Origin: a virus | Taxonomy: Duplodnaviria > Heunggongvirae > Uroviricota > Caudoviricetes | Direction: 5' to 3' (one strand) | DNA length: 64,000 bases | IMG/VR virus record: IMGVR_UViG_3300005613_000034 | Shown here: positions 39,851-60,680 of the stretch, piece by piece | Numbering within the stretch: the stretch's first letter is position 1 | How the letters are laid out: every line of letters begins with the position of its first letter | Notes under the pieces: model-generated | What the model saw: only the letters and a program-made list of their open reading frames with translations | What the model was told of the DNA's origin: nothing | The model's database searches: none | Position numbers and translations under genes: made by a program

Positions 39851-40459
39851 TTATTTTATTTGTTCATAAATAATATTTTCACTATTAAGCTTATAACACT
39901 TTCGGCAAGTATTACAATTCAATGCCCCACAATTAATTTTATCTTTATGTTTATCTCGGCAAACATTGAATACTTTGTCAAATTTTTCCGGTACTTTTGT
40001 TATTGGTTTATCTACTATCGGGTTGCTATAAACTATAATCATATTATTTGGTTTTTCATTTTTTTCTAAAACATTAGTTACAATATCGTTCCTTTTAGTA
40101 TAAAGACTGAATGTTATTGTTTGATTTTTTTCTGCTATGTTCATAAGATTTTTCATGTGTTGTTCGTTTATGAGTTCCCCGTGAGCGTGAATACGAACAA
40201 TGTCGTTCTTCTTAAATGAAGGGATTTGTTCTTGGGATATTTCATTTTGAAGAATTTGTGTATTACGCTCAAACGCAGGAACACAATTCTTTCTATAAGC
40301 TTTAAGCATAGCACAACTATAACAATCTTTACATATAACATTTTTATTTCCGCTGTTATGCATTCTTTGACAGAACGCATTACTTAGTGGGTTTGTGTTA
40401 ATCGCTGGTATATCTTTCATTTTTCCACTCATTACACTTATTTTTATTTTATCAGTCAT
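39851..40459 (-). CDS. Cys-rich protein (202 aa)
   Basis: multiple CxxC pairs CKDCYSC, CNTCRKC. Confidence 0.45.
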   Translation of the reverse strand: MTDKIKISVMSGKMKDIPAINTNPLSNAFCQRMHNSGNKNVICKDCYSCAMLKAYRKNCVPAFERNTQILQNEISQEQIPSFKKNDIVRIHAHGELINEQHMKNLMNIAEKNQTITFSLYTKRNDIVTNVLEKNEKPNNMIIVYSNPIVDKPITKVPEKFDKVFNVCRDKHKDKINCGALNCNTCRKCYKLNSENIIYEQIK

Positions 40460-40627
40460 AATATTACCTCTTCAAAATTACAATCAAAATCATCTAAATT
40501 TCCACCTTTATATTTATTCTTACAAACAGGGCAAACAATCTTAATATCTTTATCACCATATTTAATAATATCTTTACTCAAAATAACATTACACTTTTCA
40601 CACTTCAACATATCCAATTCAATACTC

Positions 40628-40646
40628 ATCTATTTCAACTCCTTTA
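40628..40646 (-). repeat. conserved gene-junction motif copy (distant, 40 kb from array)
   Basis: catctatttcaactccttt followed by attaattccttaactc, as at 266-300. Confidence 0.8.
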
Positions 40647-40908
40647 TTAATTCCTTAACTCTTTCCTCATCAATCTCAACACAACGCAAAAAATCCCTTT
40701 TTCTTTTATCTCCATCTCCAATTCCAATAAAATTATTCTTTATTGCTTTATCCCAACAATCATTTAAATAAATAGAATAAGCCTTTGCAAATCCAATAGC
40801 ATTATCTTCCCACAAAAAATCAAACAAATCATCAACAAGAACAGCATCTTTACAATAACCTATTTGCCCACCAAAACTTTTCTTTTCCAAAAACTCTCTC
40901 ATACCCAT
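40630..40908 (-). CDS. hypothetical protein, cassette family (paralog of 275..613)
   Basis: shared MGMREFL start and RVKELIKELK end plus flanking junction motifs. Confidence 0.6.
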   Translation of the reverse strand: MGMREFLEKKSFGGQIGYCKDAVLVDDLFDFLWEDNAIGFAKAYSIYLNDCWDKAIKNNFIGIGDGDKRKRDFLRCVEIDEERVKELIKELK

Positions 40909-40925
40909 TCTATTTCAACTCCTTT
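40906..40925 (-). repeat. conserved gene-junction motif copy (distant)
   Basis: cattctatttcaactccttt at start of 40630..40908. Confidence 0.8.
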
Positions 40926-41121
40926 ATAATAATTTTTTTCTAATATATCCAACGCGGACATAATCTTCATAACTAATGTCTTTCATAAAATCTAAATCTT
41001 TAATTGTTCCCCCACCCCGCCTAACAATATCATGTAAATCCGCAACATTAATATATTGATTATCCGCTAAATGTTTTAAACTATGTTTTACAAATTTTTT
41101 ATTCTTCATATCCAACACCAA
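40924..41121 (-). CDS. hypothetical protein (65 aa)
   Basis: ORF upstream of junction motif. Confidence 0.35.
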   Translation of the reverse strand: MVLDMKNKKFVKHSLKHLADNQYINVADLHDIVRRGGGTIKDLDFMKDISYEDYVRVGYIRKKLL

Positions 41122-41282
41122 AAATAATTACATTTCCATTATCAGAATCTTGTTCAACATATGTTTCTTTATATATGTTATTCCATTCTTCATCTGATGC
41201 AACTTTCACTTCTTCGTTTTCATCTACTGATTTTAATAGTTTTATTAATTCTTTTACTTTCATTTATTTCACCTCGCTTTAG

Positions 41283-41344
41283 TGGATAGAGAAGGATTCG
41301 AACCCTCTAACGCGTAATGTTTAGCACCTCTAAACTATCTATCC
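41283..41344 (-). ncRNA. tRNA-like minihelix / degenerate tRNA (acceptor stem + T-arm intact; D and anticodon arms replaced by one short hairpin)
   Basis: 5' GGATAGA / 3' TCTATCC-A acceptor; T-arm GAGGG-TTCGAAT-CCTTC; 62 nt total, too short for a canonical tRNA; overlaps ligase stop. Confidence 0.45.
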
Positions 41345-42438
41345 ATCGGATTTATATTGATTGCTACTGGAAATCGCGGCACCCCGTCTTCCGAAAGGTT
41401 TTGGTATCGGATTGTTGCGAGCTTACCTATATATTTATCTTTGTCAATCAACAATTGTTTGTAGTATTCTTCGCCCCCTTTAATTCCTGCACCAAATTCT
41501 TTTCCATTTTTATCAATAACAATCAATTTTCCTGCCATCCCCGAACGATTACCACTACCCTCAACAATATCTTTTATAACAAATTCTTCATCCACAAACT
41601 CTTTATATTTCAAAAGATATTTACTTCTCTTATTTTCATATTCAGAATTTGGAATTCTAACCATAACTCCCTCATATCCTTGTCTTACATAATTATCGTG
41701 AGCCGCCTGAACTTCTAAATGATTATTAGCTTCTTCATTTTCAACAAATTTTAAATATTTCATATCCCCAAACTTATTGATTTCATCTTTAATTAAATTA
41801 AATCTATTTACAAAATTCCAAGTTTCATTTTTCATATCACCATCAAAAATCCAATACTTAATCAATTTTTCGCTATCGGCTAAATCTTGACTTGTTGGTT
41901 TTTGTTGTTTAACTAATGAAATAACTTTTTCAAATGTTTCATCGTGTGCATAAACTTCTCCGTCTATAATCCAGTCCGGATGTTCATCAAAGAACGGTTT
42001 TAATGCTTTGCTTATATGTGGGCATGACTTATATTCTTTCCCATTCCTTGTATATAATCCATCTTTAGTTGCAATCATTCGACACCCATCTATTTTTGGG
42101 CTTACCAAAACCGGAAACGGAACACTATCTTTGTATTGAGTATATTTATGTGCTAACATAGGGTCAAAATATTTCTTTGCCGTATCAATCGCGTTGATGT
42201 CTTCGGTGTATCCTTTATCAATTTTCTTCTGCCATTTTGCTTTGGCTTCAAGCTGTGCTTGTTCTTCGGGTGTCGTTTCATTACTTCGCCCAATATTTTT
42301 TCCTTCACAAATAGTAGGCTTTGATTGAATCAATTTTCCCCCAACTTGCCCAATTATTGTATAAAAGGTATTTCCTTTAACAACAATTTCGTATTGTTGT
42401 ATTGCACCCGTTGTTGTTCTTTTATATATCTTATTCAT
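41335..42438 (-). CDS. ATP-dependent DNA ligase
   Basis: motif I KIDGCR; motif III-like KYWIFDG; EGVMVR; LLKYK motif V. Confidence 0.85.
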   Translation of the reverse strand: MNKIYKRTTTGAIQQYEIVVKGNTFYTIIGQVGGKLIQSKPTICEGKNIGRSNETTPEEQAQLEAKAKWQKKIDKGYTEDINAIDTAKKYFDPMLAHKYTQYKDSVPFPVLVSPKIDGCRMIATKDGLYTRNGKEYKSCPHISKALKPFFDEHPDWIIDGEVYAHDETFEKVISLVKQQKPTSQDLADSEKLIKYWIFDGDMKNETWNFVNRFNLIKDEINKFGDMKYLKFVENEEANNHLEVQAAHDNYVRQGYEGVMVRIPNSEYENKRSKYLLKYKEFVDEEFVIKDIVEGSGNRSGMAGKLIVIDKNGKEFGAGIKGGEEYYKQLLIDKDKYIGKLATIRYQNLSEDGVPRFPVAININPMDR

Positions 42439-42637
42439 TTAAATCTTCTCCATATATTTCTTTTAAATTTTCAATATCTTCATCATCAAGTTCAATAATT
42501 TTAATAGTAACCCCACATTCTAAACAATGATATATTTCTTCACCCTGTCCAAAATATCCTTCTATCATTTTTTTATTACATTTTGTACAATTCATTTTTA
42601 TGCCCCCGCTAAAATTAATCCTGTTAATATTCCACAT
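42431..42637 (-). CDS. zinc-ribbon protein
   Basis: CTKCN...CLECG. Confidence 0.4.
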   Translation of the reverse strand: MWNINRINFSGGIKMNCTKCNKKMIEGYFGQGEEIYHCLECGVTIKIIELDDEDIENLKEIYGEDLNE

Positions 42638-42668
42638 CCGAATATCATTATATATGTCATATCTTCAC

Positions 42669-42899
42669 TCATTTTTTCATCTCCTTTTTAAACATACTAA
42701 AAGGATATTCCAAATTAGTATATTTCTCTGTTTTTCCATCCATTTGAAAAACTAATTCAACATCAGCATAAACTAATTCTTTCTCTTTATCTATTGTAAT
42801 ATTGTTTACATTAATATATCCACCATTACAATAATGTATTCCACTATGTCTTTCTTCATAAGTTTCAATTAATTCTTTAATTTCTTTTTTATTCATCAT
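42669..42899 (-). CDS. hypothetical protein (76 aa)
   Basis: ORF. Confidence 0.35.
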   Translation of the reverse strand: MMNKKEIKELIETYEERHSGIHYCNGGYINVNNITIDKEKELVYADVELVFQMDGKTEKYTNLEYPFSMFKKEMKK

Positions 42900-43394
42900 T
42901 TTAATCCTCCTCTAATACCAATTATTCCAATAACCATATTCTTTTTCAAATAAAGTTTTAAGATATTCAGCTTGTTCTAAATTACCTTCACAATATCTTG
43001 CATTATAACATTCATTTAAAAGCAATGCCTCTCCTTCATCTTCTATCTCTTGAATATCATTATACATATCTATATCATTAGCCATCTAAATTAACCTCCC
43101 GCTCTCCATTTAATTTATTTATAATAGATGTATAATCATTTACATCATTTTCCATTTCTATTTTTATATCTAATGCAGATAATAAAATATTTATTTCATT
43201 ATTATCTAATTCAATCATTTTTTCACCTCTTTATAGTTCTGCTACTATTTCTTCTTCAATTTCTTCTCCACATAAAGGGCATTTATAAACGGTAGTTTCT
43301 TCTTCATAATCATATTCAATACCATTATAATTTCCCTCAACAGAAAATTCAACATAAAAAATTTTCTCCCCACAATTAGGGCATTCAATACTCA

Positions 43395-43745
43395 TTAATA
43401 TTCACCTCCAATAATTTCAAAATCATTATTTGGTTCTGGTTCATAATCATATTCTGAACGAATTGAATACGCACCCAGATTTGAATTTATTATTTCACAT
43501 AATTTACCAAGATTTTCCATTGACGTTCCCATGTATCTTGTGAACCCATGCGCATTTCCTTTTTTATAAATATATAAATATGCATAATTACCATTTGAAG
43601 GAACCCCATTCTCATCAATATTTCTAATCCCCCAAGTTTTATAATTTTTATCATCGCTATATATAGTTGCGTATGGGGATAAAGATAATATTGTATCGAT
43701 TGTTTTATAAGGTAAATCCGATTTAAAATCATAATCTGTACTCAT
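43395..43745 (-). CDS. hypothetical protein (116 aa)
   Basis: ORF. Confidence 0.4.
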   Translation of the reverse strand: MSTDYDFKSDLPYKTIDTILSLSPYATIYSDDKNYKTWGIRNIDENGVPSNGNYAYLYIYKKGNAHGFTRYMGTSMENLGKLCEIINSNLGAYSIRSEYDYEPEPNNDFEIIGGEY

Positions 43746-43757
43746 ATTTTTATCCTC

Positions 43758-44036
43758 CTATAAAAAATCCGCTAATAATTTCCCGAAAAATTTTTCGTCA
43801 TTATTTTTTAGATAATGCATTATACAATTAAAATGAATTAGCGTTTTTTTATCTATTGTTTTTTTATCAAAAATACTTTTAGAGTTTTCAACTATAACAA
43901 AAACCGTTTCTTTATTTTTAATTTTGTTTTCACATACACTACAAACACAATCCCCAAATATACTTTTATCAAAATCTGGGGCTATTCCAAGATGGCTTCC
44001 ACTATTAAACTCATTTATTTTTTCTTTTCTTGGCAT
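43758..44036 (-). CDS. Cys-containing hypothetical protein (92 aa)
   Basis: CVCSVCEN... Confidence 0.35.
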   Translation of the reverse strand: MPRKEKINEFNSGSHLGIAPDFDKSIFGDCVCSVCENKIKNKETVFVIVENSKSIFDKKTIDKKTLIHFNCIMHYLKNNDEKFFGKLLADFL

Positions 44037-44221
44037 TTTTTATTCCTCCTTTTAACAGATATTTCTTTAAAAGTTTCAATACAATTTTCACATATATCAA
44101 GAACTTCTTCTGTATTGACTAAGAACCACCCGCGTTTCAATAAAGCATATTCATGAAATTCTTCTGGTTTTATTTCTTTATCACATAAATCACATATTAT
44201 TGTATGTTTTTTCATATTCAA
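44015..44221 (-). CDS. zinc-ribbon-like protein (68 aa)
   Basis: CDLCDK...CENC. Confidence 0.35.
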   Translation of the reverse strand: MNMKKHTIICDLCDKEIKPEEFHEYALLKRGWFLVNTEEVLDICENCIETFKEISVKRRNKKCQEKKK

Positions 44222-44547
44222 TCCTCCAAAAATGTTTTCAAATCTTTTTTAAAATCTTTTAAATCAGATTCTGAAAAATCATATAATTGCCCACGCCCAT
44301 CCACATCAGCTTCTTTAAACCACATATCAATAAATTCGTCTAAAGAAACTTTCTCTTCTTTATACCCTTCTATTTCACCAATAAATACTCCGGCGTCATC
44401 AAGTTTATATAACTCAATCATTTCGTTTGGAGTCATTCCAAATTCATTGGCTATTCCATATTGACTTTCGGGGGATAAATCTTCCCACTGAATTCCTATT
44501 TTAACTTTTTTTGTTTTTGTATATATTCCCATTTTAAATACCTCCAA
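44218..44547 (-). CDS. hypothetical acidic protein (109 aa)
   Basis: ORF, ATGA overlap. Confidence 0.4.
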   Translation of the reverse strand: MEVFKMGIYTKTKKVKIGIQWEDLSPESQYGIANEFGMTPNEMIELYKLDDAGVFIGEIEGYKEEKVSLDEFIDMWFKEADVDGRGQLYDFSESDLKDFKKDLKTFLED

Positions 44548-44551
44548 GTAT

Positions 44552-45457
44552 TTATATTTTGTTTAATAATATATATTTACCCGCAATCTTTTTAAGTTCT
44601 TCGTTTATATTTTCCATATGCTGTTTATGGGTTTTAATGTATTCAATATTTTCATTTATAAGAGAAATTATTTCATCTTTATAAAATATTGCAATTATTT
44701 TACTTTCTTTTCTATCCCAAGAAATTTTTTGATTATAATAATTAAATATATCTCTGGTTTGATATCCTTTATTTCTTCCAATAGATACTCCATTTCCAGT
44801 TAAATACAATTTATCTTGTTCATGTAATTCTTGGTAATAATATCCAAAAAATTTTGTATTAAAAGAGTCTTTTGTTATATTACTAATTTCATTTAGTTTT
44901 TCTTGTGGTATATTTATTTCAATATTTTTATAACAATCCATTTTATTATTTATTAATATTTTTTTTATTTTTTCTAAACAGATTTTTCCCTCGTCAGTCA
45001 TAACTTCTTTTATATCATTAAAAAGAATTTCGTTATTAAAAAATCCCCAAAAAGAATAATCTCCATCAAACAAAGAACCTAATGTTGTTATATTTCCATT
45101 TTGATTCCACGCATACCCTATTCCTTTTTTTGATATTTGAATATATCTTCCTGTATAATGTAATTGTCCTAAATGAGTTTTGGTTTGTTTTTTATAAAAA
45201 AATTTTATTATATTATTTATATCATTAGCTATTAAATGTTCTTTTGAATAATATTCTAAATATTTTAAATTATTAATATAAGTTGTTTCAATTTCTTTAA
45301 TAACATTAGAATTATTTATTAATATTTTATCAACTTTATTTTCTGCATTCTGTGAATTTTCATCTCTCATCTTTGTTATTATATTTTCAATTTTATCTTG
45401 TTCTTTTCTGTATGTTAAATTAATATTATTTATATCTTCTATTAATTTTTTATCCAT
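44552..45457 (-). CDS. tandem paralog A of unknown family (KFFYKKxTKT / ISK(K/R)GIG motifs)
   Basis: NNIIKFFYKKQTKT...IQISKKGIGY; C-terminal GKYILLNKI. Confidence 0.55.
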   Translation of the reverse strand: MDKKLIEDINNINLTYRKEQDKIENIITKMRDENSQNAENKVDKILINNSNVIKEIETTYINNLKYLEYYSKEHLIANDINNIIKFFYKKQTKTHLGQLHYTGRYIQISKKGIGYAWNQNGNITTLGSLFDGDYSFWGFFNNEILFNDIKEVMTDEGKICLEKIKKILINNKMDCYKNIEINIPQEKLNEISNITKDSFNTKFFGYYYQELHEQDKLYLTGNGVSIGRNKGYQTRDIFNYYNQKISWDRKESKIIAIFYKDEIISLINENIEYIKTHKQHMENINEELKKIAGKYILLNKI

Positions 45458-45475
45458 GCGCTTCCCTCCAGATAA

Positions 45476-46282
45476 TTATATTAGTTGTGTAGTAAAATAT
45501 TTTGCACCAAGTTGGTTAAAATCTTCTATAAATTTTTCAAAGGTTTTATTTTTATTTCTTGTGTCTTCTCCGTTTTCATTTACAAATTCTGTTATTTCAT
45601 TAATATAAATTCCAGTTAAAGTTTTAGATAAAAAAGAATCACTAAAGTTTATTGACTTATTTGAATAACAAAATAAATCTATAGTTGTTTCCCAAGTATC
45701 GGTAGCACTTGAAGACAATTGAATGTTTGGTTCATCTGTATCACATTCTAAATATAAATATTCAATTTCTTCTTCTTGGTTTCCTATTATTTTTTTAACA
45801 TTATCATCTAATACAATTTTCATTGACTTATCTTTTATTTCACCACTATCTAAATTTTTATTTTTTTCAATTAATTTTTTTAATTTTTCAAAAAAATCTT
45901 TACCTTCATCATTAAGATTTTTTATAAGATTTTTATATACAGATTTTGTTGTTAAAATGTATTCTAATGAATTATCTTTTCCAAATAAATCTTCTAAAAG
46001 TTTCATATTTCCAAATCCATAAACAAATCCTATTCCTCTTTTAGATATTTGATAATTAATGCTACTAAGATATTGAGTTGGTTTTTTATAAAATGTTGTT
46101 TTCGTTGGCTTTTTATAAAAAAATTTTATAATACTATTCAATTGTTTTAACATTTTTTCTTTATTTTCATTATTATAATAATGTCTTAATTTTATGCTTT
46201 CCAAATCATGTTTAAGTAATTCAGCATTCTTTTCGGCGTTATTATTAAATTCTATAATGTTTTCAACTTCTTTTGTATTCAT
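45476..46282 (-). CDS. tandem paralog B of same family
   Basis: LNSIIKFFYKKPTKT...YQISKRGIGF. Confidence 0.55.
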   Translation of the reverse strand: MNTKEVENIIEFNNNAEKNAELLKHDLESIKLRHYYNNENKEKMLKQLNSIIKFFYKKPTKTTFYKKPTQYLSSINYQISKRGIGFVYGFGNMKLLEDLFGKDNSLEYILTTKSVYKNLIKNLNDEGKDFFEKLKKLIEKNKNLDSGEIKDKSMKIVLDDNVKKIIGNQEEEIEYLYLECDTDEPNIQLSSSATDTWETTIDLFCYSNKSINFSDSFLSKTLTGIYINEITEFVNENGEDTRNKNKTFEKFIEDFNQLGAKYFTTQLI

Positions 46283-46296
46283 ATATTTCCCTCCAT

Positions 46297-47121
46297 TTAT
46301 AATGCTTTTATTAATAAATATTTTGAAGACAAATCATTAAATTCATTAATAAAGTTTTCCCATTTTTCATTTTCAACTTTCAATATTTTAGCGACATCGT
46401 TTGTAATCTTTTTTAATTCATCAAAATAAATTAATGTTATAATTTGACTATCAAAAGAGTTTGCATAATCAATACCTTTATAACCTTTCCCATATTGAAA
46501 CAACCTATATTCATTTCTAAAATAATCTTCTTTTTCATTACTATCAATCACATATAATTTAACTACCCCACGTTCGTTTACCATTTCAATTTTATTTATA
46601 TTTTCTGTGCCAGTAATTAAATTTACTAAACTATTTGATTCAATATCAAATACATCTTTTGTTGGTTTATATTTTAATTCATATTTTTTAATTAAATTTT
46701 TAAGTTCTTTAAAATATGTTTTTCCATTATCGTTTAATTTTTCATACACTTCATTAAACAACTCTTCGTTTTCAAAAACAATTGCCATAGGATAGTCTTC
46801 ATCAAAAAACTTATAAAATAATTCCATATTAGAACCCGAATAATACCCAGTTCCTATTCCTCGTTTTGAAAATTGAATGTGTCTTTCGGGATTGTATCCC
46901 CTATTATTATCATTTAATTTATATTTTTTAAGTTCTGTTTTTGTTTGTTTAGAATAAAAAAACTTCATAATATTATTTATATCAGAAGCTATTTTTTTAT
47001 TTGACTCATACCCATTATCAGAAAATAAAGTTATCGTATCTAAATCTTCTTTTAATTCATTAATTTTATCTCTGTTTTTTACTATATATTCTTCTGTTTG
47101 TTTAAATGTTGTGCAATCCAT
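46297..47121 (-). CDS. tandem paralog C of same family
   Basis: INNIMKFFYSKQTKT...IQFSKRGIGT. Confidence 0.55.
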   Translation of the reverse strand: MDCTTFKQTEEYIVKNRDKINELKEDLDTITLFSDNGYESNKKIASDINNIMKFFYSKQTKTELKKYKLNDNNRGYNPERHIQFSKRGIGTGYYSGSNMELFYKFFDEDYPMAIVFENEELFNEVYEKLNDNGKTYFKELKNLIKKYELKYKPTKDVFDIESNSLVNLITGTENINKIEMVNERGVVKLYVIDSNEKEDYFRNEYRLFQYGKGYKGIDYANSFDSQIITLIYFDELKKITNDVAKILKVENEKWENFINEFNDLSSKYLLIKAL

Positions 47122-47123
47122 TT

Positions 47124-48314
47124 TTAATCCTCCATTTCAAATAAAATTGATTTACCATATTTTGGGCGTTCACAATTATTATCTGTTAAAACAAAAATTG
47201 TTTTCCCAAATTTATAATCAACTTGATTAATATCACTATATCCATCTGTAAAACAAACCAAAACATTAGTTCTGTTTTTCTTTACATAATCCATTATAGG
47301 TTGATGACTTGTTCCACCACCACCAACCGGCTTAAGATTCTTTATATCACGCAAATTCATATTATTAAATGAATATTCTTTTTTTAATTCATCATCGTGA
47401 TATAACACTTTAACTTTAATATTATGGAATGAATTTACAATATTATATATTTGTCCTAAGAACATACTCAATTCTTTGTTTCTGATTGAGCCACTTGTGT
47501 CTATTGCTATTGTAATATCCATACTTTCTTTTTGAATATAAGGCATATAAACTCCCGTTGAAAAACTTCTTTTTGATGGGCGTGAATATGAATAGTTATG
47601 CCCGATTTCATTAGTCATATATCTTGCAAGAAGCGTTTTCCAATTTACTTTATTTGATAAAGTTAATTCAACCAATCTATCAAAATCAGCACTTCCTTTT
47701 CCTTGTGTTTTTGCAAACGCACTTGCTTCTGCTAATACCTGTTTCCAATCAGTTTCAATTTCAAGTCCTTCTGTTTGTCCTTGTTGCCCAACTTCATTTT
47801 TATTATCTTCATCTTCTGATATATGAATATCAAACCCTTTTAAAAGTTCTTTAAGTTTTTCTTTTTCATCTACCAAAGGTTGAAGTTCTTTATAAATCAT
47901 TTCTGCTGTTTTTTTATCTATATCATTTATTGTTATAGATAATATTTCTATTTGATTATTTCTTGGAACTAATCCTTTTGGTAATTGCATTTTTCCATTA
48001 CTTATCATATTATTTACAACAATATCAGTAGCCCAATTAAACATTTGTGCATCTCTTTTATCTCGTCTTTTAATATGTTCTAACGCACAATGCATTGCTT
48101 CATGGCAAAGAACCCCTTCAAGTTCTTCGTCAGATAATTTCATTACCCATTCAGTGTTGAAATAACAAGTTCCATATTGATTAACCCCCATAGTTGGAAC
48201 TCCTTTATTATCTTCTACAAAGCCCATATGATTTGTAATAAAAGAAAAGAACGGGGCTTTTTCATATAGTTGTATTTTTGCTCTTATTATTCTTTCTTTC
48301 GCCGTTAAACCCAT
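47124..48314 (-). CDS. VWA-domain protein with N-terminal HExxH metallopeptidase-like region (partner of MoxR ATPase)
   Basis: CHEAMHCALEH; MIDAS AIDTSGS; C-terminal VWA-like fold. Confidence 0.7.
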   Translation of the reverse strand: MGLTAKERIIRAKIQLYEKAPFFSFITNHMGFVEDNKGVPTMGVNQYGTCYFNTEWVMKLSDEELEGVLCHEAMHCALEHIKRRDKRDAQMFNWATDIVVNNMISNGKMQLPKGLVPRNNQIEILSITINDIDKKTAEMIYKELQPLVDEKEKLKELLKGFDIHISEDEDNKNEVGQQGQTEGLEIETDWKQVLAEASAFAKTQGKGSADFDRLVELTLSNKVNWKTLLARYMTNEIGHNYSYSRPSKRSFSTGVYMPYIQKESMDITIAIDTSGSIRNKELSMFLGQIYNIVNSFHNIKVKVLYHDDELKKEYSFNNMNLRDIKNLKPVGGGGTSHQPIMDYVKKNRTNVLVCFTDGYSDINQVDYKFGKTIFVLTDNNCERPKYGKSILFEMED

Positions 48315-48327
48315 TACATCACCTCCG

Positions 48328-49398
48328 TTATGCTAAATATTTTATATATTCTTTACTCAATGGTTCCCATTCTTTTAGTTTTAACAACTCTGTTCCAATT
48401 CTTGTTGGACGATATGCCTTACATAATTTCAATGTTATAGCAACAAATTCTGGGTCGAATTTATGACATATTTTAATTATTGATTTCAAACTATCTGGTT
48501 TTGATGCATACTTACTTGCAAATCCTCCAGCCAAAGCATATTTTGTATCAACCCTTTCTGGTGTCTTAAACTTTTCCGGTTCAGCAAGAATTTTATCAAT
48601 ATTCAATTTCTCTTGCATTTTTCTATATGCAATAAATTCTGTTGCTACACCATCTCCAACACACGAAGCCAATAACATTTTTTCTTCTTTTTCATTCAGA
48701 TTAAGTTTTACTTTCAAATTATTGCTTCCCATTTCCCAACTTCTTGGGGTTCCAAATGCATCTTGCGACTTTTCGGGGTCGAAGTTATGCAAATATTCTC
48801 CTTTGAAATTAATAAAACTGATTACATCTGGGTGAATATTGTTTTGTGTTGCCCACGCAATCCATTCATCTGGTGTTGGTTTTCTTAATGTTAGATGTGT
48901 AAATCTATTACATAGTGGGGCAGGCATATCAAAGATATTTGCTTTATCTTCTGTTCCATTTCCCGCTGATATAATTAACCAACCTTCTGGTATTTCTATA
49001 TCATCTATTTTTCTATCTCTGATTATTTGATAAGCCGCGGCTTGAACACTTGGGTTAGCCAAATTCAGTTCATCAAAGAACCATATGCCGTGTGAGTTTC
49101 CTCGTGGCATTGTAGTTGGTTTTAACCAATTAGTTGTTCCATTTTTTAAATCAGGAACGGGTATTCCTCTTAAGTCAGTTGGTTCATATTGACTTAATCT
49201 GCTGTCTATTAAACCGAATTTTCCTTCTTCCCAGCCGTTTTCAACAAATTCCATTTTCTTTTCTTCGGCAATGGTTTTTGCTACGGCTTTTATAATATCC
49301 GATTTTCCAATACCCATTGTTCCTTTAATGTGTAATGGTTGTTTTGTTTCGTAAGCAACTCTTATTGCTCGTTCTAATTCTTTATGGTTTACTTCCAA
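48328..49398 (-). CDS. MoxR-like AAA+ ATPase
   Basis: Walker A GTMGIGKS; Walker B IWFFDELN; 13-nt gap to VWA gene. Confidence 0.8.
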   Translation of the reverse strand: MEVNHKELERAIRVAYETKQPLHIKGTMGIGKSDIIKAVAKTIAEEKKMEFVENGWEEGKFGLIDSRLSQYEPTDLRGIPVPDLKNGTTNWLKPTTMPRGNSHGIWFFDELNLANPSVQAAAYQIIRDRKIDDIEIPEGWLIISAGNGTEDKANIFDMPAPLCNRFTHLTLRKPTPDEWIAWATQNNIHPDVISFINFKGEYLHNFDPEKSQDAFGTPRSWEMGSNNLKVKLNLNEKEEKMLLASCVGDGVATEFIAYRKMQEKLNIDKILAEPEKFKTPERVDTKYALAGGFASKYASKPDSLKSIIKICHKFDPEFVAITLKLCKAYRPTRIGTELLKLKEWEPLSKEYIKYLA

Positions 49399-49748
49399 AC
49401 AAATCCCTCCTTGTGTTTGTAAATATTATTCTTTTTGTGATACAGCTAATGCTGTTCCTACAAATATAATAATTGATGTTTCATCTATTGAAAATTGCCC
49501 ATTAGTTAGTGTTTGTATTATATAAGCAATTATAATTTGCATTATTAATACTATAAAATATGCTTTATTCATTTTACCACCCAATATTCTATGAATGCTG
49601 TATAACTAAGTCTTGTTTCAGTATATGTAATTCTTTTTACATCTTCTTTTGATAAAATCTTATTTACTTCATTTTCAAATTCTTCTGGAAATTCTCTTGT
49701 TATTATTTTTAATTTTAGTTTTCTATCTTTATATGGTAATCCAACCAT

Positions 49749-49931
49749 TTATTTCATCTCCTTATTTGCAAATTTTCTTGCGTCTTTAAAAATTCTTTTA
49801 GCACAATCTTTACATATACGGGCGTGTAATTCTTCCCCAAATATATCGTATACTAAAGATTTCAGCTCTTCTCCTTTCCAAAGTGAAGTTTTGTTTTCTT
49901 TTCCACAACTATCGCAGTATTCTTTTTTCAT
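49749..49931 (-). CDS. zinc-ribbon protein (60 aa)
   Basis: CDSCG...CKDC. Confidence 0.4.
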   Translation of the reverse strand: MKKEYCDSCGKENKTSLWKGEELKSLVYDIFGEELHARICKDCAKRIFKDARKFANKEMK

Positions 49932-49947
49932 AATTAAATCCCTCCAA

Positions 49948-50634
49948 TTATAATTTTGCTATTACCAAATATTTTGAACATTCATCTTCATATTCTTTTA
50001 TTATTTTTTCTAATTTAATTGATTTCTTTTTATGTTCAGATTTTAATTCTTTTAATAAAGGGGTTAATTCTTTTTTTAGTTCCCTCTGTAAAAAAAATCC
50101 TTGCATTTGATAAGTATAATATTGATAACAAAATTTTAATCTTAAATAATTACCATATTTTATTTTATTTTTTATATAAATATTTCCAGTTGTTCCAACA
50201 AACAATTCACATTTTACTTTTTGTTTAGAAAAATTATTATAAAAAAAAATACATTCTGCTAATCCTTTATTAATAATAATTTCGTGTCTATTGATTTTTT
50301 TAAAATTAATATCTGTTCTATTTGCTTTACCATAAAACAATAATGCTTTTTCTATAAATTCAATTTCGTGTTTTGGAATTTTTGTTTCATAATTATGTTT
50401 AATAAAATGATAACCCGTTTTATAATCCCTCATATACGCATTATACCAACGATTAATCAATCCCTTATTTCTCATTTCGGCAACTAAAACAGGGCAACAT
50501 ATTTTTATATCATTCGCAAGTCGTTCAATAAAATTTTCTGATATTGGGGTTTTAAGTCCTAAACAAAATGTTTCATCTTTTGTTAGCTTAATATGTTTTC
50601 GGTTTAACATTTTTACTATATTTTGATATTCCAT
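49948..50634 (-). CDS. fourth, diverged member of the 44552-47121 paralog family
   Basis: similar length and C-terminal SKYLVIAKL ending; weaker internal similarity. Confidence 0.4.
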   Translation of the reverse strand: MEYQNIVKMLNRKHIKLTKDETFCLGLKTPISENFIERLANDIKICCPVLVAEMRNKGLINRWYNAYMRDYKTGYHFIKHNYETKIPKHEIEFIEKALLFYGKANRTDINFKKINRHEIIINKGLAECIFFYNNFSKQKVKCELFVGTTGNIYIKNKIKYGNYLRLKFCYQYYTYQMQGFFLQRELKKELTPLLKELKSEHKKKSIKLEKIIKEYEDECSKYLVIAKL

Positions 50635-50803
50635 TTATTTCACCTCAACACTAACTTCAATATCTCCACCACAAAATTGGCAAAGACTTTTTCCTACCCC
50701 AGCAATAGATATTTTATCAGAAGATACATTATATTTTGTTTTTAATTTATTAATTAATTGTATCATTTCTGTTCCATTATATATTTCGTCTATTATTATT
50801 GTT

Positions 50804-51067
50804 TTATTCATTTTTTACCCCCTCCCCATTATTATATTCTATTGATAGTCCCCCACACCCACAATTATAATTTCTTAGAATTATATCTTTATCTTGTATA
50901 TTATATTTTTGAGCCATATGAATTACTTTATTTAAAAAATCAGTAAAATTTATTTCATCTTCTATTTCTATTGATATTTCTCCTTTGTTTATTTCAGTAT
51001 ATCCTATTTCATCTATGAATGTTTCCATTATTCTTCCACCCCCAAAATTACTCTTATTTTTCTCCAA
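50804..51067 (-). CDS. hypothetical protein (87 aa)
   Basis: ORF. Confidence 0.35.
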   Translation of the reverse strand: MEKNKSNFGGGRIMETFIDEIGYTEINKGEISIEIEDEINFTDFLNKVIHMAQKYNIQDKDIILRNYNCGCGGLSIEYNNGEGVKNE

Positions 51068-51177
51068 GTGGCTGGGCGTATATGTTCATATTTTTTATTT
51101 TTAGTTCCTTTCTTTTTTAAAAATGTTATAATATCTTTATGAACACCCGTTTGTTTCATTTCTTCCCATTCCATTAT

Positions 51178-51414
51178 TTATTCCCCCTCTAATGTTTCTA
51201 TATACATACTCAAGCTTTCAGTAATGTTTGTTTGTCCTTCTGGAATAACTTCGTCAGCCCCCCTAACAATTACTTTAACTTCAACAATCTTTTCAATTAT
51301 ATCCCCCAACAAATCCTGAACAAACGGATATGCTTCAGCCATTAATTCAGCATTAGCAACAAAGTCTTCAGCTTTATTAAGTTCATCTATTATCTGTTTT
51401 TTCCTACTTACCAT
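51178..51414 (-). CDS. hypothetical protein (78 aa)
   Basis: ORF. Confidence 0.35.
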   Translation of the reverse strand: MVSRKKQIIDELNKAEDFVANAELMAEAYPFVQDLLGDIIEKIVEVKVIVRGADEVIPEGQTNITESLSMYIETLEGE

Positions 51415-51478
51415 TAATCCACCTCTTTATAATGCATAAATAACAATTTCTTTAATAATATCATCAATACTTTCCATT

Positions 51479-51679
51479 TTAATCATTCCTATACAATTCC
51501 TTTTTACATTTACTACAAATTACTTTATAACTTTCTGAACCATAAATCTCTTCATCTCCCCACAATTCTCCTGTGGTGGCTTCAACATAAAACACTTTTT
51601 CCTGAACAACCATAAATTCAGTGCTTCCACACTCGCATTTATCATCTGTTTCAACATAAAACTCTCCTGCTTCGCCCAT
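51479..51679 (-). CDS. zinc-ribbon protein (66 aa)
   Basis: CECGS...CSKCK. Confidence 0.4.
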   Translation of the reverse strand: MGEAGEFYVETDDKCECGSTEFMVVQEKVFYVEATTGELWGDEEIYGSESYKVICSKCKKELYRND

Positions 51680-52316
51680 TTAATCCATCTCCTCTAATTC
51701 AACAATCTTTCCATACAACTCATCTATTTCAGTTGTATATTCTTTAACACTGCTTAATGCGTTTTTAATTATTTGTATCTCTTCTTTTGTAAAATCATAT
51801 ATCATTTAATCACTTCCTCGCCTTGTTTAACAACTTTTGTTCTACATTCAAACACTGACTTATAAGTTTTCGCCCATTCTTTCGCTACATCTTCTTTTTC
51901 AAAGTCAGTTGCTAATATTTCCCAATCGTTGTTTTGATAGTATAAAATATTATACATCGGTTTCACCTCCGTTTAATATAGCCACGCTTACTATTATTAT
52001 TCTTCATTTGTTTATAGTAAGCTAATTCCCACGAATGTATTTTTGTTTTATTTTTGTTCCTACAATTAATTAAACACATATTTTTTGTGTCTAAATAAAA
52101 CTTTCCTTCTTTCGTTTTTACAACTTCCAAATAAACCCCCCCTTAATCAGTTGTAGTAATCAATAGGGGATAGTTTCCATATTATTCAATACAATTTTCC
52201 AACCTAAAATCGTCATACTGACGACTACCTATATATTTAGTGCATACTTATAGCTACGCACAGATTGAATAATATTTCCGTGTCTATCCCCCGTATTTAC
52301 AAGAGATTAAGTGGAT

Positions 52317-52502
52317 TTATTTTTCTGTTGCAAATTTCTTGATTTCTTCAAGGTTTGCAAGGATAAGGTTTGCTTTTCCTTTTCCTATATGTAGGTTTCC
52401 AAAAGATTTTGTTTCATCTCTACCAATAGTCAATATTGGCTTACCTTTAAACTCGCTGTATGCAACGAATGGTTTTGGTTCAGGTTTTAATTTGATTTCC
52501 AT
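52317..52502 (-). CDS. small protein, N-terminal EIKLKP family
   Basis: MEIKLKPEPK.. similar to MVEIKLKPDK.. of 53002..53289. Confidence 0.4.
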   Translation of the reverse strand: MEIKLKPEPKPFVAYSEFKGKPILTIGRDETKSFGNLHIGKGKANLILANLEEIKKFATEK

Positions 52503-52727
52503 TTATTGAACACCCCCGTTTAGTAGTTCTTCAATTTTTGTTTTTTCTGATGGACATAGTGAAACATATTTGTCAAGAATTTCTGTCTTAACAAATGTAT
52601 CTACATCTGTCCTTTCGTTTATTTCTGCCTTTGACTTTACATAGTCAAGAGCAACTGCTACATTTTTAGACATTTTAAATGCCTTTCTTGTAGTATTCTC
52701 GTCCTTTTTTGCATTTACTTCTACCAT
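52503..52727 (-). CDS. hypothetical protein (74 aa) with structured 5' leader
   Basis: preceded by 21-nt repeat, GC hairpin and GGAGGGA SD. Confidence 0.4.
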   Translation of the reverse strand: MVEVNAKKDENTTRKAFKMSKNVAVALDYVKSKAEINERTDVDTFVKTEILDKYVSLCPSEKTKIEELLNGGVQ

Positions 52728-55591: not shown

Positions 55592-56644
55592 ATGACATCA
55601 AAAAAATCTGATATTGATAGAACAAATCTTTCTGACATACCTTCATATAGCAAAATGTTTGATAAAATAAAATCAATAGACATCAACGAATACAAAGGAT
55701 ATACCCGGAAAAGAATGATTTGGGTAAAGGCAGCCGCTACTATTCTACTATTAACGGGGTGTAGGGTTACTGAATTACTTTTACTTAGAAAAAAAGATAT
55801 TCGATTCTTTGGATTTAATAATAATGAATTGGTTGGGCAGTTTGATATTTCCCAGATTGCATCAATGCAATTTAATTTATATACCGAGAAGAACCGTAAA
55901 AACAAGTATAGAGTTGTTCCTGTTGTAAAAAACAGTTTTTTTATTGACATGATATCTATTGTATATGATTTTTATAAAACCTTTGATTATGATGAGACAT
56001 ATTTATTCCCACTCACAAGGCAGGGGGTATGGAATGGTATAAAGGCGGTTTTTGGAAATAATATGTTTCCACACTTCCTTAGACACATTTCAGTAACTAA
56101 TGATACTAAAGCTGGTATTTCTCCATCTATTATTAAATCTAAATATGGGTGGACGGATCTTAGACCACATTCAATTTATTCACACTTGAATTGGTTTGAT
56201 ATTCAAACCGCACAAACTTCTGCATGGGGGGAGGCCGCACCCGCTCCAAAAGCCATTATTATTGAACGCCCTAGTTGGATGAAAGGGTCTTATGCCCAAA
56301 TGACCAATTATAATAAAAAAGTTGAGCATGCATTACATAATAATCAAGATTTTGTTCCGCGAGATTTTGATACTATTGAAGAAGCACTTAAAAATAAAGT
56401 TGAAATGGGGGATTCAATAGATGGTAAAATTGTTGTTATTTTGTCTAGAGAGACCGATTTTGATAAAGCTAAAAAGAGGTTTGACGGGAATAAATATATA
56501 TTGATTTATGCTAAAAGTAAGGAAGCTATTAAAAAAATGGAAAGTGTTACTAATGCGTCCGCTCAAAAACGAAGCCCGAATCCAACCCCCCAACCTCCAA
56601 CAAAAACAGTTCCTAAAAATACTCCTCAATTAGCTATGGTGTAG
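55592..56644 (+). CDS. tyrosine recombinase / integrase
   Basis: box I-like LLLTGCRVTELLLLRKKDI (Arg); HFLRHISVT (H-x-x-R); HSIYSHL (Tyr); ~120-aa Pro-rich C-terminal extension. Confidence 0.75.
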   Translation: MTSKKSDIDRTNLSDIPSYSKMFDKIKSIDINEYKGYTRKRMIWVKAAATILLLTGCRVTELLLLRKKDIRFFGFNNNELVGQFDISQIASMQFNLYTEKNRKNKYRVVPVVKNSFFIDMISIVYDFYKTFDYDETYLFPLTRQGVWNGIKAVFGNNMFPHFLRHISVTNDTKAGISPSIIKSKYGWTDLRPHSIYSHLNWFDIQTAQTSAWGEAAPAPKAIIIERPSWMKGSYAQMTNYNKKVEHALHNNQDFVPRDFDTIEEALKNKVEMGDSIDGKIVVILSRETDFDKAKKRFDGNKYILIYAKSKEAIKKMESVTNASAQKRSPNPTPQPPTKTVPKNTPQLAMV

Positions 56645-58050: not shown

Positions 58051-58479
58051 ATGAGTAATAATGAAGATTTAGTTGAAAGAGTTGATTGGGAAAAAATTCA
58101 ACCAATGTCTAGATATGCCGGGGGGCATGATGATCAAATGGAAGGGTTATTAAAAAATTCTACTGTTTTAGCTCATTGGAATGAAGGGGATTATCAAGGA
58201 AGTGTTGCGACATGTGTCCAATTGAATGATACTAAAGAAATAGTGATTTTTTGTGATTATTATGGTTCTTGTAGTGGGTGTGATGCGTGGGAAGATGCTT
58301 CTGATGAAGAAGCTTTAAGAATGTGTAAAGGTCTTGCAGCTGGGGCAAAAATATTTAAGAATATTGAAGAATGTAAAGAATTTTTATCTCTAGAAAAATA
58401 TGAATCTAATGATTATGAATGGGACTGTTGTTCAAAAGAATTACTTGAAGAACTTGAAAATGGTGAAAAAGATGACTAA
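58051..58479 (+). CDS. hypothetical Cys-rich protein (142 aa)
   Basis: FCDYYGSCSGCDAW; stop overlaps next ATG. Confidence 0.45.
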   Translation: MSNNEDLVERVDWEKIQPMSRYAGGHDDQMEGLLKNSTVLAHWNEGDYQGSVATCVQLNDTKEIVIFCDYYGSCSGCDAWEDASDEEALRMCKGLAAGAKIFKNIEECKEFLSLEKYESNDYEWDCCSKELLEELENGEKDD

Positions 58480-59032
58480 AAAACTCAACATTGGATGTGG
58501 GAATCAATACGAAAAAGGTTGGGTTAACACCGAAATTGTTGAAGGGTGTAAAGCCGATTTTTATTTTGATGCTGGGAGAGATCCGTGGCCTTTTCCAGAT
58601 AATACTTTTGAACGCATGAAAGCTGAACATGTTTTTGAACATTTACCAGATTATGATGCAAGAATGCATTTTTTACGCGAAGCTCATAGAGTTTGTGAAC
58701 CAGGGGCAAAAATTTTCTTAGCAATGCCATATTCAAGCAGTGGTGGAACTTGGAATGACATGCAACATATTCGACCATTTGGGGCCGCAAGTTTTGATTA
58801 TGTTTCAGTCAATCCTTCTTCGAAGGTTTCTATTATGCATGACCAGGAAGTAGGTGATCTTGTGGGGGCATTCAAACAAAAGACTACGATAAAATTCGGG
58901 CGATTTTATACAAAATTCCTTTTCCTTGAATTTTTTGCAAATTGGTGGCACACTCGTCATATTTATGAGTTGTTATTTCAATATATTTTCCAAGCACAAG
59001 AATTACACGCTCATTTAGAGGTGGTAAAATAG
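58472..59032 (+). CDS. class I SAM-dependent methyltransferase
   Basis: LNIGCGNQ motif I; start taken at MTKKLNIGCG (ATGA overlap). Confidence 0.65.
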   Translation: MTKKLNIGCGNQYEKGWVNTEIVEGCKADFYFDAGRDPWPFPDNTFERMKAEHVFEHLPDYDARMHFLREAHRVCEPGAKIFLAMPYSSSGGTWNDMQHIRPFGAASFDYVSVNPSSKVSIMHDQEVGDLVGAFKQKTTIKFGRFYTKFLFLEFFANWWHTRHIYELLFQYIFQAQELHAHLEVVK

Positions 59033-59167
59033 AATTGTGCCCAGAATGCGGTAGTTGTAGATCGATGAAATTTTATGGAAAAGGAGCAAAAAAAGGATTA
59101 GGAATAAAAATGCTCGTTATACACTGCGAGTATTGTGGGGCAAAACAAATAAGTTGGGTGAAAACAG

Positions 59168-60208
59168 ATGACATATAAAAGAAAATTAAAAAAATTATTG
59201 AAAGTCGTTTCGACAGGAAATTTTTCATATTTATGGGCCCCCAAAAGAATTCAATTTATTCCTACACTAAAATGTAATCTTAATTGTAAAATGTGTCATC
59301 AGAAAGATATTAAACATGCTGGAGAACGCGAAATGTCTTTAGCGGAAATTAATAATAAATTACGAGAACTCAAAAATATGGGTATTCATCAAATTGCGTT
59401 TGTTGGTGGAGAAGTTTTTGTAAATAAAAGACGCGGGTTTGAGATCCTTGATTTGGCGGAACAACACAAATTTTTATTTAGTGTAGCTACAAATGGGTTT
59501 AGACTTGAAGATGAAGATATTGAAAAACTTGCAAAATATCGGGGGCTTGTAGAAGTTGATATTTCGGTTGATGGGCCACAAGAAGTGCACGATAAAATTC
59601 GCGGAGTTCCGGATGCTTATATGTGGGCTGAACATGCTATAATTAAATGTAAAGAGTTAGATATCCCGGTTGCAACAGTTACTGTTATTCAAAAAGATAA
59701 TATAAAATGGTTACCTTGGTTAGCAAGAAAACTTGCAATAAATGGAGTTGTACAAGCAACTTTTGTATATGAATATTCAGTATCCGAAAAAGAAATTGAA
59801 GATACAAAAAAGATTATTCACTCGTTAACTGGAAAAAGTTCTACGATTTTTGCTAGTCATAGTGTTGGTAAGAATACTTTTAAGTATTCGTTGAAAGATT
59901 TGGTGGATAAGTTTTCTCAGATGGAATTTTTTGCTAATTATCATGGGATGAAACTTAATTTACAGGCGCGGGATTTAGATGTGTTAAAATCTGTAAAAAA
60001 TAAGTCTATAACAAAAGATTTTGATTGTAGTTGTGAAAGTATTAGCGAATTGAATCAAGTTGATTGGACTGGGGCGTTTGATTTTTGTCCGTTTATTAGA
60101 ATTGATGGTGCGTCTAAAGAAGAAGTTTTAGAAGTTCAGAAAAAGATTAAAACGCTTCCAATTTGCGATCGTTGTTGTGGTTTGACTATAGGGGAGTTGA
60201 AAAAATGA
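59168..60208 (+). CDS. radical SAM protein with C-terminal SPASM/twitch-like Cys cluster
   Basis: CNLNCKMC CxxxCxxC; C-terminal CSCES..CPF..CDRCCG. Confidence 0.8.
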   Translation: MTYKRKLKKLLKVVSTGNFSYLWAPKRIQFIPTLKCNLNCKMCHQKDIKHAGEREMSLAEINNKLRELKNMGIHQIAFVGGEVFVNKRRGFEILDLAEQHKFLFSVATNGFRLEDEDIEKLAKYRGLVEVDISVDGPQEVHDKIRGVPDAYMWAEHAIIKCKELDIPVATVTVIQKDNIKWLPWLARKLAINGVVQATFVYEYSVSEKEIEDTKKIIHSLTGKSSTIFASHSVGKNTFKYSLKDLVDKFSQMEFFANYHGMKLNLQARDLDVLKSVKNKSITKDFDCSCESISELNQVDWTGAFDFCPFIRIDGASKEEVLEVQKKIKTLPICDRCCGLTIGELKK

Positions 60209-60390
60209 GTTTAAGAAGTTGGCATCAAGTAGTGGGGAGTTTTGGGTTTTTAATTTTAATAGCATTTTTGGGGCAATTACTTGAATCAAGGTCAATTTCA
60301 ATTTTTATATTAATGATAATGCTTTTTATTTGTGGAATGTTTTTTGGTTATGGAATACTCATTCCAGTAAAAGAGGATGTGAAAAAATGA
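60205..60390 (+). CDS. small membrane protein
   Basis: 2 TM; start taken at MSLRSW after GGAG. Confidence 0.4.
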   Translation: MSLRSWHQVVGSFGFLILIAFLGQLLESRSISIFILMIMLFICGMFFGYGILIPVKEDVKK

Positions 60391-60680
60391 CTTTAGATAT
60401 GTATGGAAATCCTGTTTTGCCGTGGTATGCTAAATTTGGGTTCATTCTTGGAGCAATAATTGCATTTATACAAATCCCACTTATAATATCACATTTTTTA
60501 CAAATAGAAAATGTTGAACAACCAATAAGGCCGATTGTAACTTCTTTGCCAGATGCAATTGATATTATATTAACTTCTTGGTGGATTATGTTATGGGTAT
60601 TAATTTTGGCTATATTAATAGGAATTATTTCAGCAGTAATAGAAATGTATGGGTTGCCGCGGGAGGATGAGATACATTGA
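60387..60680 (+). CDS. small membrane protein
   Basis: 2-3 TM; start taken at MTLDMYG. Confidence 0.4.
   Translation: MTLDMYGNPVLPWYAKFGFILGAIIAFIQIPLIISHFLQIENVEQPIRPIVTSLPDAIDIILTSWWIMLWVLILAILIGIISAVIEMYGLPREDEIH

Follow-up and report, generated by a model that had tools for sequence, protein, structure and literature searches.

The 64,000-nt stretch of virus DNA analyzed here (IMG/VR record IMGVR_UViG_3300005613_000034, Caudoviricetes; hereafter the window) carries at 44218-50634, on its minus strand, a compact gene module in which a MoxR-like AAA+ ATPase and a protein that combines a metallopeptidase with a von Willebrand factor A (vWA) domain are encoded between genes for proteins with a common C-terminal tail. 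All of the open reading frames (ORFs) that a first, sequence-only reading of this region had listed are indeed found there. They have strong GGAGG ribosome-binding sites and are separated by intergenic gaps of -16 to +27 nt, a wider range than the 0-15 nt given by that reading. Comparison with related loci and contigs, which are designated by L-numbers and include a sister virus, L002, showed a conserved layout: a gene for a tail protein, the ATPase gene, the peptidase-vWA gene and one to three further genes for tail proteins, usually with one more member a few kb away (Table 1). The zinc ribbon that had been counted as part of the operon corresponds to a real ORF. However, this ORF and two small ORFs are missing between the 233-amino-acid (aa) gene and the ATPase gene of L002, and the three are therefore a lineage-specific insertion rather than part of the core. 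The 109-aa gene at the downstream end has an ortholog at the equivalent position in L002 (46% identity, E 2e-26), and its product has no Pfam or PHROG match. A 13-kb public contig (L005; ENA ERZ27256772 k141_2039141) encodes the same proteins as the window between 41 and 54 kb, as checked directly for P0001, so that this part of the window is present in an independent public assembly record.

Table 1. Features of the module, of the rest of the window and of two related contigs. Positions refer to the window unless a contig is named.
Feature	Position	Strand	Remarks
228-aa upstream-type tail-bearing protein	49948-50634	-	ends ...SKYLVIAKL
60-aa CxxC...CxxC zinc-ribbon protein	49749-49931	-	strong GGAGG site; Pfam matches weak
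59-aa ORF, function not assigned	49569-49748	-	insertion
Small hydrophobic protein, 48-52 aa	49426-49584	-	two hydrophobic stretches, probably membrane-associated; called as a 48-aa gene in L005
MoxR-like (AAA_5) AAA+ ATPase, 356 aa	48328-49398	-	TTG start; phrog_1297
C-terminus of the ATPase	48328-48375	-	ends ...KLKEW..LS.EY.KYL(x)
Zincin-like metallopeptidase (DUF2201_N)-vWA protein, 396 aa	47124-48314	-	phrog_1314
Paralog 1 (P0001), 274 aa	46297-47121	-	ends ...SKYLLIKAL
Paralog 2 (P0004), 268 aa	45476-46282	-	ends ...AKYFTTQLI
Paralog 3 (P0002), 301 aa	44552-45457	-	ends ...GKYILLNKI; N-terminal helix longer
109-aa conserved downstream gene	44218-44547	-	no tail motif; membership in the module uncertain
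Fifth family member, 317 aa	38339-39292	-	ends ...EKYLVIEKM; beside the GP88 gene, ~5 kb from the operon
GP88/DUF5131-like gene	39851-40459	-	
Very small CxxC...CxxC zinc-ribbon ORFs	40456-44221; 50635-52727	-	many, around the module
NrdD with ATP-cone	30235-33360	-	split by an intein carrying a LAGLIDADG homing-endonuclease domain
1743-aa ORF	9807-15038	-	
942-aa ORF	26726-29554	-	
453-aa ORF	15077-16438	-	
SPFH/Band-7 protein	22962-23840	-	
Glycan- and cofactor-type auxiliary genes	20024-22146	-	with the next row: DegT-family aminotransferase, NAD-dependent epimerase/dehydratase, methyltransferase, radical-SAM protein, family-9 glycosyltransferase
Glycan- and cofactor-type auxiliary genes	58400-61624	+	see previous row
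Replication and nucleic-acid genes		-	D5-like primase-helicase, family B DNA polymerase, PD-(D/E)XK nuclease, ATP-dependent DNA ligase
Other genes of the minus-strand run		-	sugar-modifying enzymes, SPFH protein, metallophosphatase, GP88-family protein, NrdD with intein, 1743-aa ORF
Tyrosine integrase	55592-56644	+	long C-terminal extension
tRNA-Ile(GAT)	63876-63948	+	7 kb from the integrase
vWA gene followed by a paralog pair	2923-5524 of L173		360 and 388 aa
265-aa protein between ATPase and vWA genes	2112-2909 of L179		ends ...KCAKYLILGEL plus an acidic extension

The ATPase matches phrog_1297 over its full length (E 6.6e-85) and scores just above the threshold of the Pfam family AAA_5 (23.1 bits, cutoff 22). 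With AAA_3 (PF07726, MoxR proper) it reaches 14.7 bits, below the cutoff of 27, and the name MoxR-like is therefore valid only in the broad sense that phage annotations and Iyer et al. give it. No PDB sequence matched at E <= 0.1. The Walker A (GTMGIGKS) and Walker B (FFDE) motifs, which the sequence-only reading had picked out, are invariant in five lineages, and Walker A begins at residue 26, leaving no N-terminal extension. The vWA gene follows after 13 nt. Its product matches PF13203 (DUF2201_N; E 3e-32, 112.7 bits, cutoff 23.2), PF09967 (DUF2201; E 3e-16, 59.9 bits, cutoff 26.4) and phrog_1314 (E 1.3e-80). In agreement with that reading, the HExxH and DTSGS motifs are present, the former as HEAMH. 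Across eight homologs, including those of N4-like phages and S-TIM5, the peptidase residues H71, E72, H75 and H80 (HExxH..H) are invariant, as are residues D272, S274, S276, T335 and D357 of the MIDAS (the metal-ion-dependent adhesion site). The vWA domain is C-terminal, and the protein stops ~40 residues past the last MIDAS aspartate.

Homologs of the ATPase were detected in 811 phage records, among them those of Bacillus phage G, S-TIM5 and N4-like phages. An N4-like Klebsiella phage also has the two genes side by side, with the ATPase gene first, and next to a dUTPase gene and replication genes; in S-TIM5 the pair adjoins a virion structural gene. N4 gp24, listed as unknown, and gp25, annotated as vWFA, belong to the 14 core genes of N4-like phages (PMC4193335). 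A pair of a MoxR AAA+ ATPase and an N-terminal metallopeptidase-vWA protein has been described in jumbo phages and was proposed to act as a virion-assembly chaperone with peptidolytic processing (Iyer et al. 2021, PMC7824862), and in the halovirus Hardycor1 the pair sits in a replication/accessory module (PMC7911831). The pair is thus a widespread and already described phage module of the N4 gp24/gp25 kind, and the proposal of a candidate novel system does not hold for it. CobS/CobT, another AAA+/vWA pair found in archaeal tailed viruses, might suggest a chelatase or metal-insertion module as in cyanophages and haloviruses, and the ATPase does weakly match phrog_249 ('porphyrin biosynthesis', E 4.9e-4). 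However, the match to phrog_1297 exceeds this one by ~80 orders of magnitude, the vWA protein carries DUF2201_N instead of a CobT domain, and no CobN-like partner was seen. The domain assignments effectively exclude such a module.

The three tandem proteins encoded after the vWA gene are 30-31% identical to each other in pairwise BLASTP comparisons (E 4e-21 to 1e-24), which makes them true paralogs, as first noted from the sequence, rather than proteins with chance similarity. Collecting 24 full-length members of ~265-300 aa took an exhaustive HMMER search through 1.84 billion cluster representatives; a word-indexed protein search had returned only one relative outside the window. The KFFY and GIG motifs recognized in the three window proteins extend through the whole family as KFFYxKxxK and QISKxGIG. 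In the alignment of the 24 sequences K61, G88 and G90 are invariant, S85, I89 and K141 are almost invariant, and ...AKYxxLxxI is the conserved form of the C-terminus. Paralogs 1 and 3 have orthologs in L002 (a 272-aa protein with 37% identity and the 316-aa P0003 with 40% identity, respectively). Paralog 2 is an extra copy relative to L002 and appears as sister to the 274/272 clade in a neighbor-joining tree.

Profile searches all came back empty, in keeping with the initial impression that the paralogs fit no known family. No Pfam family was matched consistently by the 24 members or by the 228-aa protein, and nothing was found for family representatives in PHROGs and NCBIfam. PADLOC gave only two isolated matches to the 24 members, at E 0.02 or weaker. 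A tblastn search with one paralog against 50,697 phage records gave no match, and neither did the family profile against PDB sequences. An AlphaFold2 model of paralog 1 based on the 24-sequence alignment has a mean predicted local distance difference test score (pLDDT) of 89 and a predicted template-modelling score (pTM) of 0.83; it replaced a model from a four-sequence alignment that was unusable (pLDDT 48). From N- to C-terminus the model runs from a ~50-residue helix through a beta-hairpin region with QISKxGIG and three short helices to a second beta-rich subdomain, and closes with a helix of ~50 residues. The predicted fold had no detectable relative among PDB and BFVD structures. A known structural family, for example of tail or receptor-binding proteins, was looked for in PDB, BFVD and PHROGs and was not found. 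Judged by these profile searches and the modelled fold, the paralogs represent an undescribed and rare family without detectable structural relative.

The proteins of this family end with [KSQP][YW]-h-h-x-x-x-[ILMF]-COOH, as in KYLLIKAL, KYILLNKI, KYLVIAKL and KYLVIEKM, and five ORFs of the window carry this tail. In its strict form the pattern occurs in 4 of the 293 window ORFs, compared to 2 of 12,319 ORFs from control loci (Fisher p = 4e-6). Among metagenome loci that were not used to define it, five of the nine occurrences fall in the few loci of the window clade (p = 3.7e-6). The ATPase itself has a C-terminus whose final KYL resembles the family tail (...KYL...). This ending is invariant over five lineages and was seen in L002, L009, L015, L018, L099 and L101; a related ...AKY(L/F) ending is kept in ATPase homologs at 40% identity, which indicates an old trait of the ATPase, and its spacing differs from that of the family tail.

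The family is larger than it first appeared, since a 317-aa member lies outside the region covered by the sequence-only reading. This protein matches the family hidden Markov model (HMM) at E 1.4e-18 over HMM positions 76-276 (hhalign probability 97.8%, E 1e-12) and has the C-terminal ~180-200 residues in common with the paralogs. Orthologs of it are encoded near GP88 in L001 and L018; in all, the GP88/DUF5131-like gene lies near the 317-aa member in three lineages, with a 4-nt overlap in L001.

For the 228-aa protein encoded upstream of the ATPase, similarity to the family is confined to the C-terminal 70-140 aa and is marginal (BLASTP E 0.016; hhalign probability 34-43%, E 2.5e-4 to 4e-4), with the hhalign alignment ending exactly at both C-termini. 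Its orthologs lie directly upstream of the ATPase gene in L002 (41% identity, E 5e-56) and L018 (30%), and the L018 protein matches the family HMM at 1.3e-5. In L168 the gene upstream of the ATPase encodes a clear family member (E 1.9e-15), and fragments at this position in L009 and L015 match the family as well. Thus, the description of the 228-aa protein as a diverged member gains support from its position, while the relation by sequence stays marginal, and we regard it as probably related to the paralog family, though very diverged.

Genomic contexts were recovered for nine distinct family representatives. In all eight contexts with a visible upstream neighbor, the first member on the downstream side is encoded immediately behind the vWA gene or behind another member, as seen in the window, L001/L002, L009, L011/L012, L014 (where the neighbor was confirmed), L015 and L018. 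A tail-bearing gene precedes the ATPase gene in all eight lineages in which that position is visible, although most members lie after the vWA gene, where the window and L015 have three copies, L002, L009 and L166 have two, and L018 has a single one. In the reverse direction, 80 metagenome loci were fetched with the ATPase profile, and all of those with an ATPase at least ~50% identical and usable flanks (L166, L168 and L169) carry family members. In contrast, none was found in 147 loci with an ATPase of at most 41% identity (80 from IMG/VR, <=37%, and 67 from GTDB genomes, <=41%), indicating that the family is a lineage-specific addition that is not intrinsic to the pair. The co-occurrence proposed in the first reading therefore extends to every related contig with a visible neighborhood, and pair homologs that lack the paralogs, which that reading had named as a counter-argument, do exist among the distant loci and not among the close relatives with usable flanks. 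Within one viral clade, the family is genuinely and consistently linked to the pair.

This linkage could also reflect common ancestry in a compact, collinear genome, with independent early or accessory proteins kept as conserved neighbors and the tail merely closing the helical hairpin of its own protein. Gene order is conserved in the single clade that supplied all contexts, and the ligase and GP88 genes are syntenic there too; in addition, one member lies 5 kb off, the tail is part of a confidently folded helix, and hundreds of phages have the pair without the family. Nevertheless, we consider such an explanation decidedly unlikely. The flanking arrangement holds down to ~50% ATPase identity while other neighbors change, for instance by small-ORF insertions or by the 82-aa gene inserted between the ATPase and vWA genes of L015. 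Moreover, the 317-aa and 228-aa subfamilies keep the tail though they have no N-terminal KFFY helix against which it would pack, which suggests a role of the tail beyond intramolecular packing. This retention, as seen against the modelled fold, argues for such a role without proving it. Finally, a different paralog pair with its own C-terminal motif is found at the equivalent position in L173.

The L173 proteins, encoded after a vWA gene beside an ATPase 46% identical to that of the window, are 28% identical to each other (E 1e-32) and have no detectable relation to the window family; they share the C-terminal motif ...LExLVxxxL, and several smaller ORFs downstream end similarly. In L179 (ATPase 37% identical) the 265-aa protein can be aligned from end to end to the family profile, though not significantly (E 0.19), and, going by this alignment, may be a very distant member. 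Together, the two loci provide thin evidence that a pair with private tagged partners may recur. As a general theme, paralog arrays beside the pair were not found: IMG/VR loci gave only unrelated cases (lysozyme-like and radical-SAM-like pairs), and no common terminal motif links the genes beside the pair in those cultured phages that were examined (N4-like, S-TIM5).

In line with the rapid diversification assumed from the paralogs alone, the family diverges about twice as fast as neighboring genes. Between the window and L002 identity is 73.5% for the ATPase, 69% for the vWA protein, 76% for the ligase and 73% for GP88, compared to 37-41% for family members; the corresponding values for L018 are 62% (ATPase), 55% (vWA protein) and 72.5% (GP88) versus 22-30%. 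The copy number after the vWA gene also varies, from one to three, and a rough neighbor-joining tree indicates separate duplications in different sublineages. Within the proteins, conservation is highest in residues 41-61 and in the tail (251-274) and lowest in residues 1-40, which form the distal N-terminal helix, and 148-221, which form the second beta subdomain.

The window as a whole is AT-rich (~29% G+C), and its viral-type genes form one uninterrupted run on the minus strand from ~55 kb down to 1 kb. Its family B DNA polymerase is at most 25% identical to any polymerase of a cultured phage (best match), no member of the window lineage was found among GTDB species genomes, and an IMG/VR search with the single window ATPase gave no close relative. 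The DNA comes from a virus or provirus that is uncultured and deeply divergent. The best ATPase matches in GTDB, at 35-40% identity, are a mixture of bacterial and archaeal metagenome-assembled genomes and point to no host. The integrase shows a weak preference for archaeal XerA (3.6e-10) over XerD (1.2e-3), and the sign of the GC skew reverses near 54-55 kb. The integrase, the tRNA-Ile gene and this reversal are only weak hints on lifestyle and host domain, and the plus-strand genes beyond the integrase may belong to either the virus or its host. A scan for promoters and terminators was uninformative (62 promoter-like sites versus 63.7 expected).

No Pfam or PHROG match was found for the 1743-, 942- and 453-aa ORFs. 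The sole NCBIfam match among the three, that of the 1743-aa ORF to eIF-6, is weak (E 0.002, 17.5 bits versus a cutoff of 137.75), and these three ORFs may include structural or entry proteins of the virus that have escaped recognition. The window encodes an SPFH/Band-7 protein, and the N4-like Klebsiella phage has an SPFH-like lipoprotein gene a few genes upstream of its ATPase/vWA pair, which may be coincidence. Small zinc-ribbon ORFs such as those around the module have likewise been reported from accessory regions of haloarchaeal viruses (PMC7911831).

Based on these observations, we tentatively favor a model, which we hold as plausible but short of probable, in which a lineage of uncultured low-GC viruses has equipped the known phage pair with a private protein family that evolves fast, the members serving as dedicated clients or target-selecting adaptors, preferably inside the cell. 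A client or adaptor role is suggested by analogy with NorQ/NorD, CbbQ/CbbO and RavA/ViaA and with the p618/p892 couple from ATV (Acidianus two-tailed virus). For NorQD, the vWA domain plugs the pore of the ATPase hexamer, and both an intact vWA domain and surface carboxylates on the target are needed (PMC9976466); in ATV, p618 has the vWA protein p892 and also several virion proteins as binding partners (PMC4124505). By the same logic, the vWA protein of the window would be an adaptor that plugs into the ATPase hexamer, and its MIDAS site would grip a carboxylate of the partner, the candidates being Glu235, which is conserved, or the free carboxyl end of the tail. ATP hydrolysis would then remodel the tail-bearing protein, which the intact HExxH domain may also cleave. 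The conserved base and the tail could serve as a common handle, and the variable beta-rich subdomain (~148-221) might contact diverse targets during host takeover or counter-defense.

Several observations weigh against this model. Synteny is the sole basis for coupling the family to the pair, one member is encoded ~5 kb away from it, and the upstream 228-aa protein has only marginal sequence similarity to the family. Most phages with the pair lack the family, which the pair thus does not require. No recognizable effector-like or enzymatic domain was found in the family, and its fast divergence could mean weak constraint rather than conflict. A long helix modelled with confidence (pLDDT 87-95) ends in the tail, whose conservation may reflect packing within the protein rather than docking. 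Lastly, gene position is the only ground for preferring an early, host-directed role to virion assembly.

This preference is the weakest step of the argument, and the alternative is virion morphogenesis. In that case the paralogs would be structural proteins (for instance fibers, decoration proteins or internal proteins, built of a helical stalk and a variable head) that the MoxR/vWA pair helps to assemble and the HExxH domain matures, with the tail as an assembly or targeting signal; for the tails of ATV a function of this kind has been shown in part. Such a role is what Iyer et al. (2021, PMC7824862) propose for the MoxR/peptidase-vWA pair, and ATV p618 binds three virion proteins in addition to p892 (PMC4124505). 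The modelled long helices at both termini flank a beta-rich middle, fast evolution and duplication are typical of virion proteins that contact the host, and the S-TIM5 pair has a virion structural gene beside it. Conversely, the paralogs show no similarity to known virion proteins in PDB or BFVD and no structural PHROG match. Their neighbors are the ligase, GP88, nuclease, NrdD, PolB and small zinc-ribbon genes, with no recognizable capsid, portal or terminase gene adjacent, and the pair lies in a replication or accessory region in N4-like phages and Hardycor1 as well. We favor an intracellular role because replication and early-type genes surround the module, a setting that N4-like phages and haloviruses show as well, and we regard morphogenesis as rather unlikely, although it is an alternative to be taken seriously.

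A bolder version of the client and adaptor model, which we consider unlikely but worth stating, would make the tail proteins a new class of interchangeable adaptors or pro-effectors. Their tails would be docking or cleavage tags for the MIDAS or HExxH sites, and their fast-evolving heads would direct the machine to host targets, giving a viral counterpart of the cellular ternary MoxR-vWA conflict systems. If true, this would be the first clue to the function of the N4 gp24/gp25-type pair. The pair occurs in hundreds of phages, in jumbo phages and in archaeal viruses without an established substrate or function. A clade in which it is flanked by a private tagged family offers candidate clients and, with the C-terminal tail, a candidate recognition element, both of which are open to in vitro biochemistry without culturing the virus. 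The import is limited in that virus and host are uncultured and the link is known from genomes only.

Ternary systems of the VMAP type (Kaur et al. 2020, PMC7159879) are defined by four features, namely a VMAP-C protein, the gene order VMAP-MoxR-vWA, a MoxR protein with an N-terminal WxhapG/PsWRxa region and a vWA protein that evolves fast and bears arrays of effector domains at its C-terminus. The window locus resembles them in having three components, of which the third evolves faster than the ATPase. A tail-bearing gene also lies upstream of MoxR-vWA, but most family members are encoded behind the vWA gene. The integrase makes a temperate lifestyle possible. The module might therefore be pictured as a virus-borne defense or superinfection-exclusion system analogous to VMAP systems, with paralogs as sensors or effectors triggered by a competing element. 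We regard this as very unlikely. A VMAP-C match, the WxhapG/PsWRxa extension of the ATPase and a C-terminal effector array on the vWA protein are all absent, as are a PADLOC match and a recognizable toxic or effector domain. With 69% identity to its L002 ortholog, a conservation like that of the ligase, the vWA protein evolves slowly, unlike those of VMAP systems, and has an N-terminal peptidase. Moreover, VMAP systems are cellular and occur in multicellular bacteria. The window locus may work loosely like VMAP systems but is not a member, and its initial designation as a conflict system is a hypothesis that neither PADLOC nor the VMAP features support.

The systems from which the mechanism is borrowed, NorQ/NorD, CbbQ/CbbO and RavA/ViaA, provide the precedent for a hexameric ATPase, a pore-plugging vWA adaptor and a MIDAS that binds target carboxylates. 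However, their clients are metabolic enzymes, and they have neither a peptidase domain nor a paralogous client family. ATV p618 (MoxR) and p892 (vWA) are, like the window pair, a viral couple, and the former interact with several virus-encoded partners (p387, p653 and p800); in contrast to the window, the ATV vWA protein has no peptidase domain and the ATV clients are not paralogs with a common tail. Closest is the phage pair itself (phrog_1297/phrog_1314, N4 gp24/gp25, and that of group 2.2 jumbo phages), which has the same domains, the same order of ATPase followed by vWA, and intact Walker, HExxH and MIDAS motifs. To this pair the window adds a dedicated tail-bearing family that is absent from the cultured phages examined and from the 80 IMG/VR and 67 genome loci. 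Thus, in comparison with known systems, what is new here is a dedicated third component, the paralog family, on a known MoxR/peptidase-vWA module.

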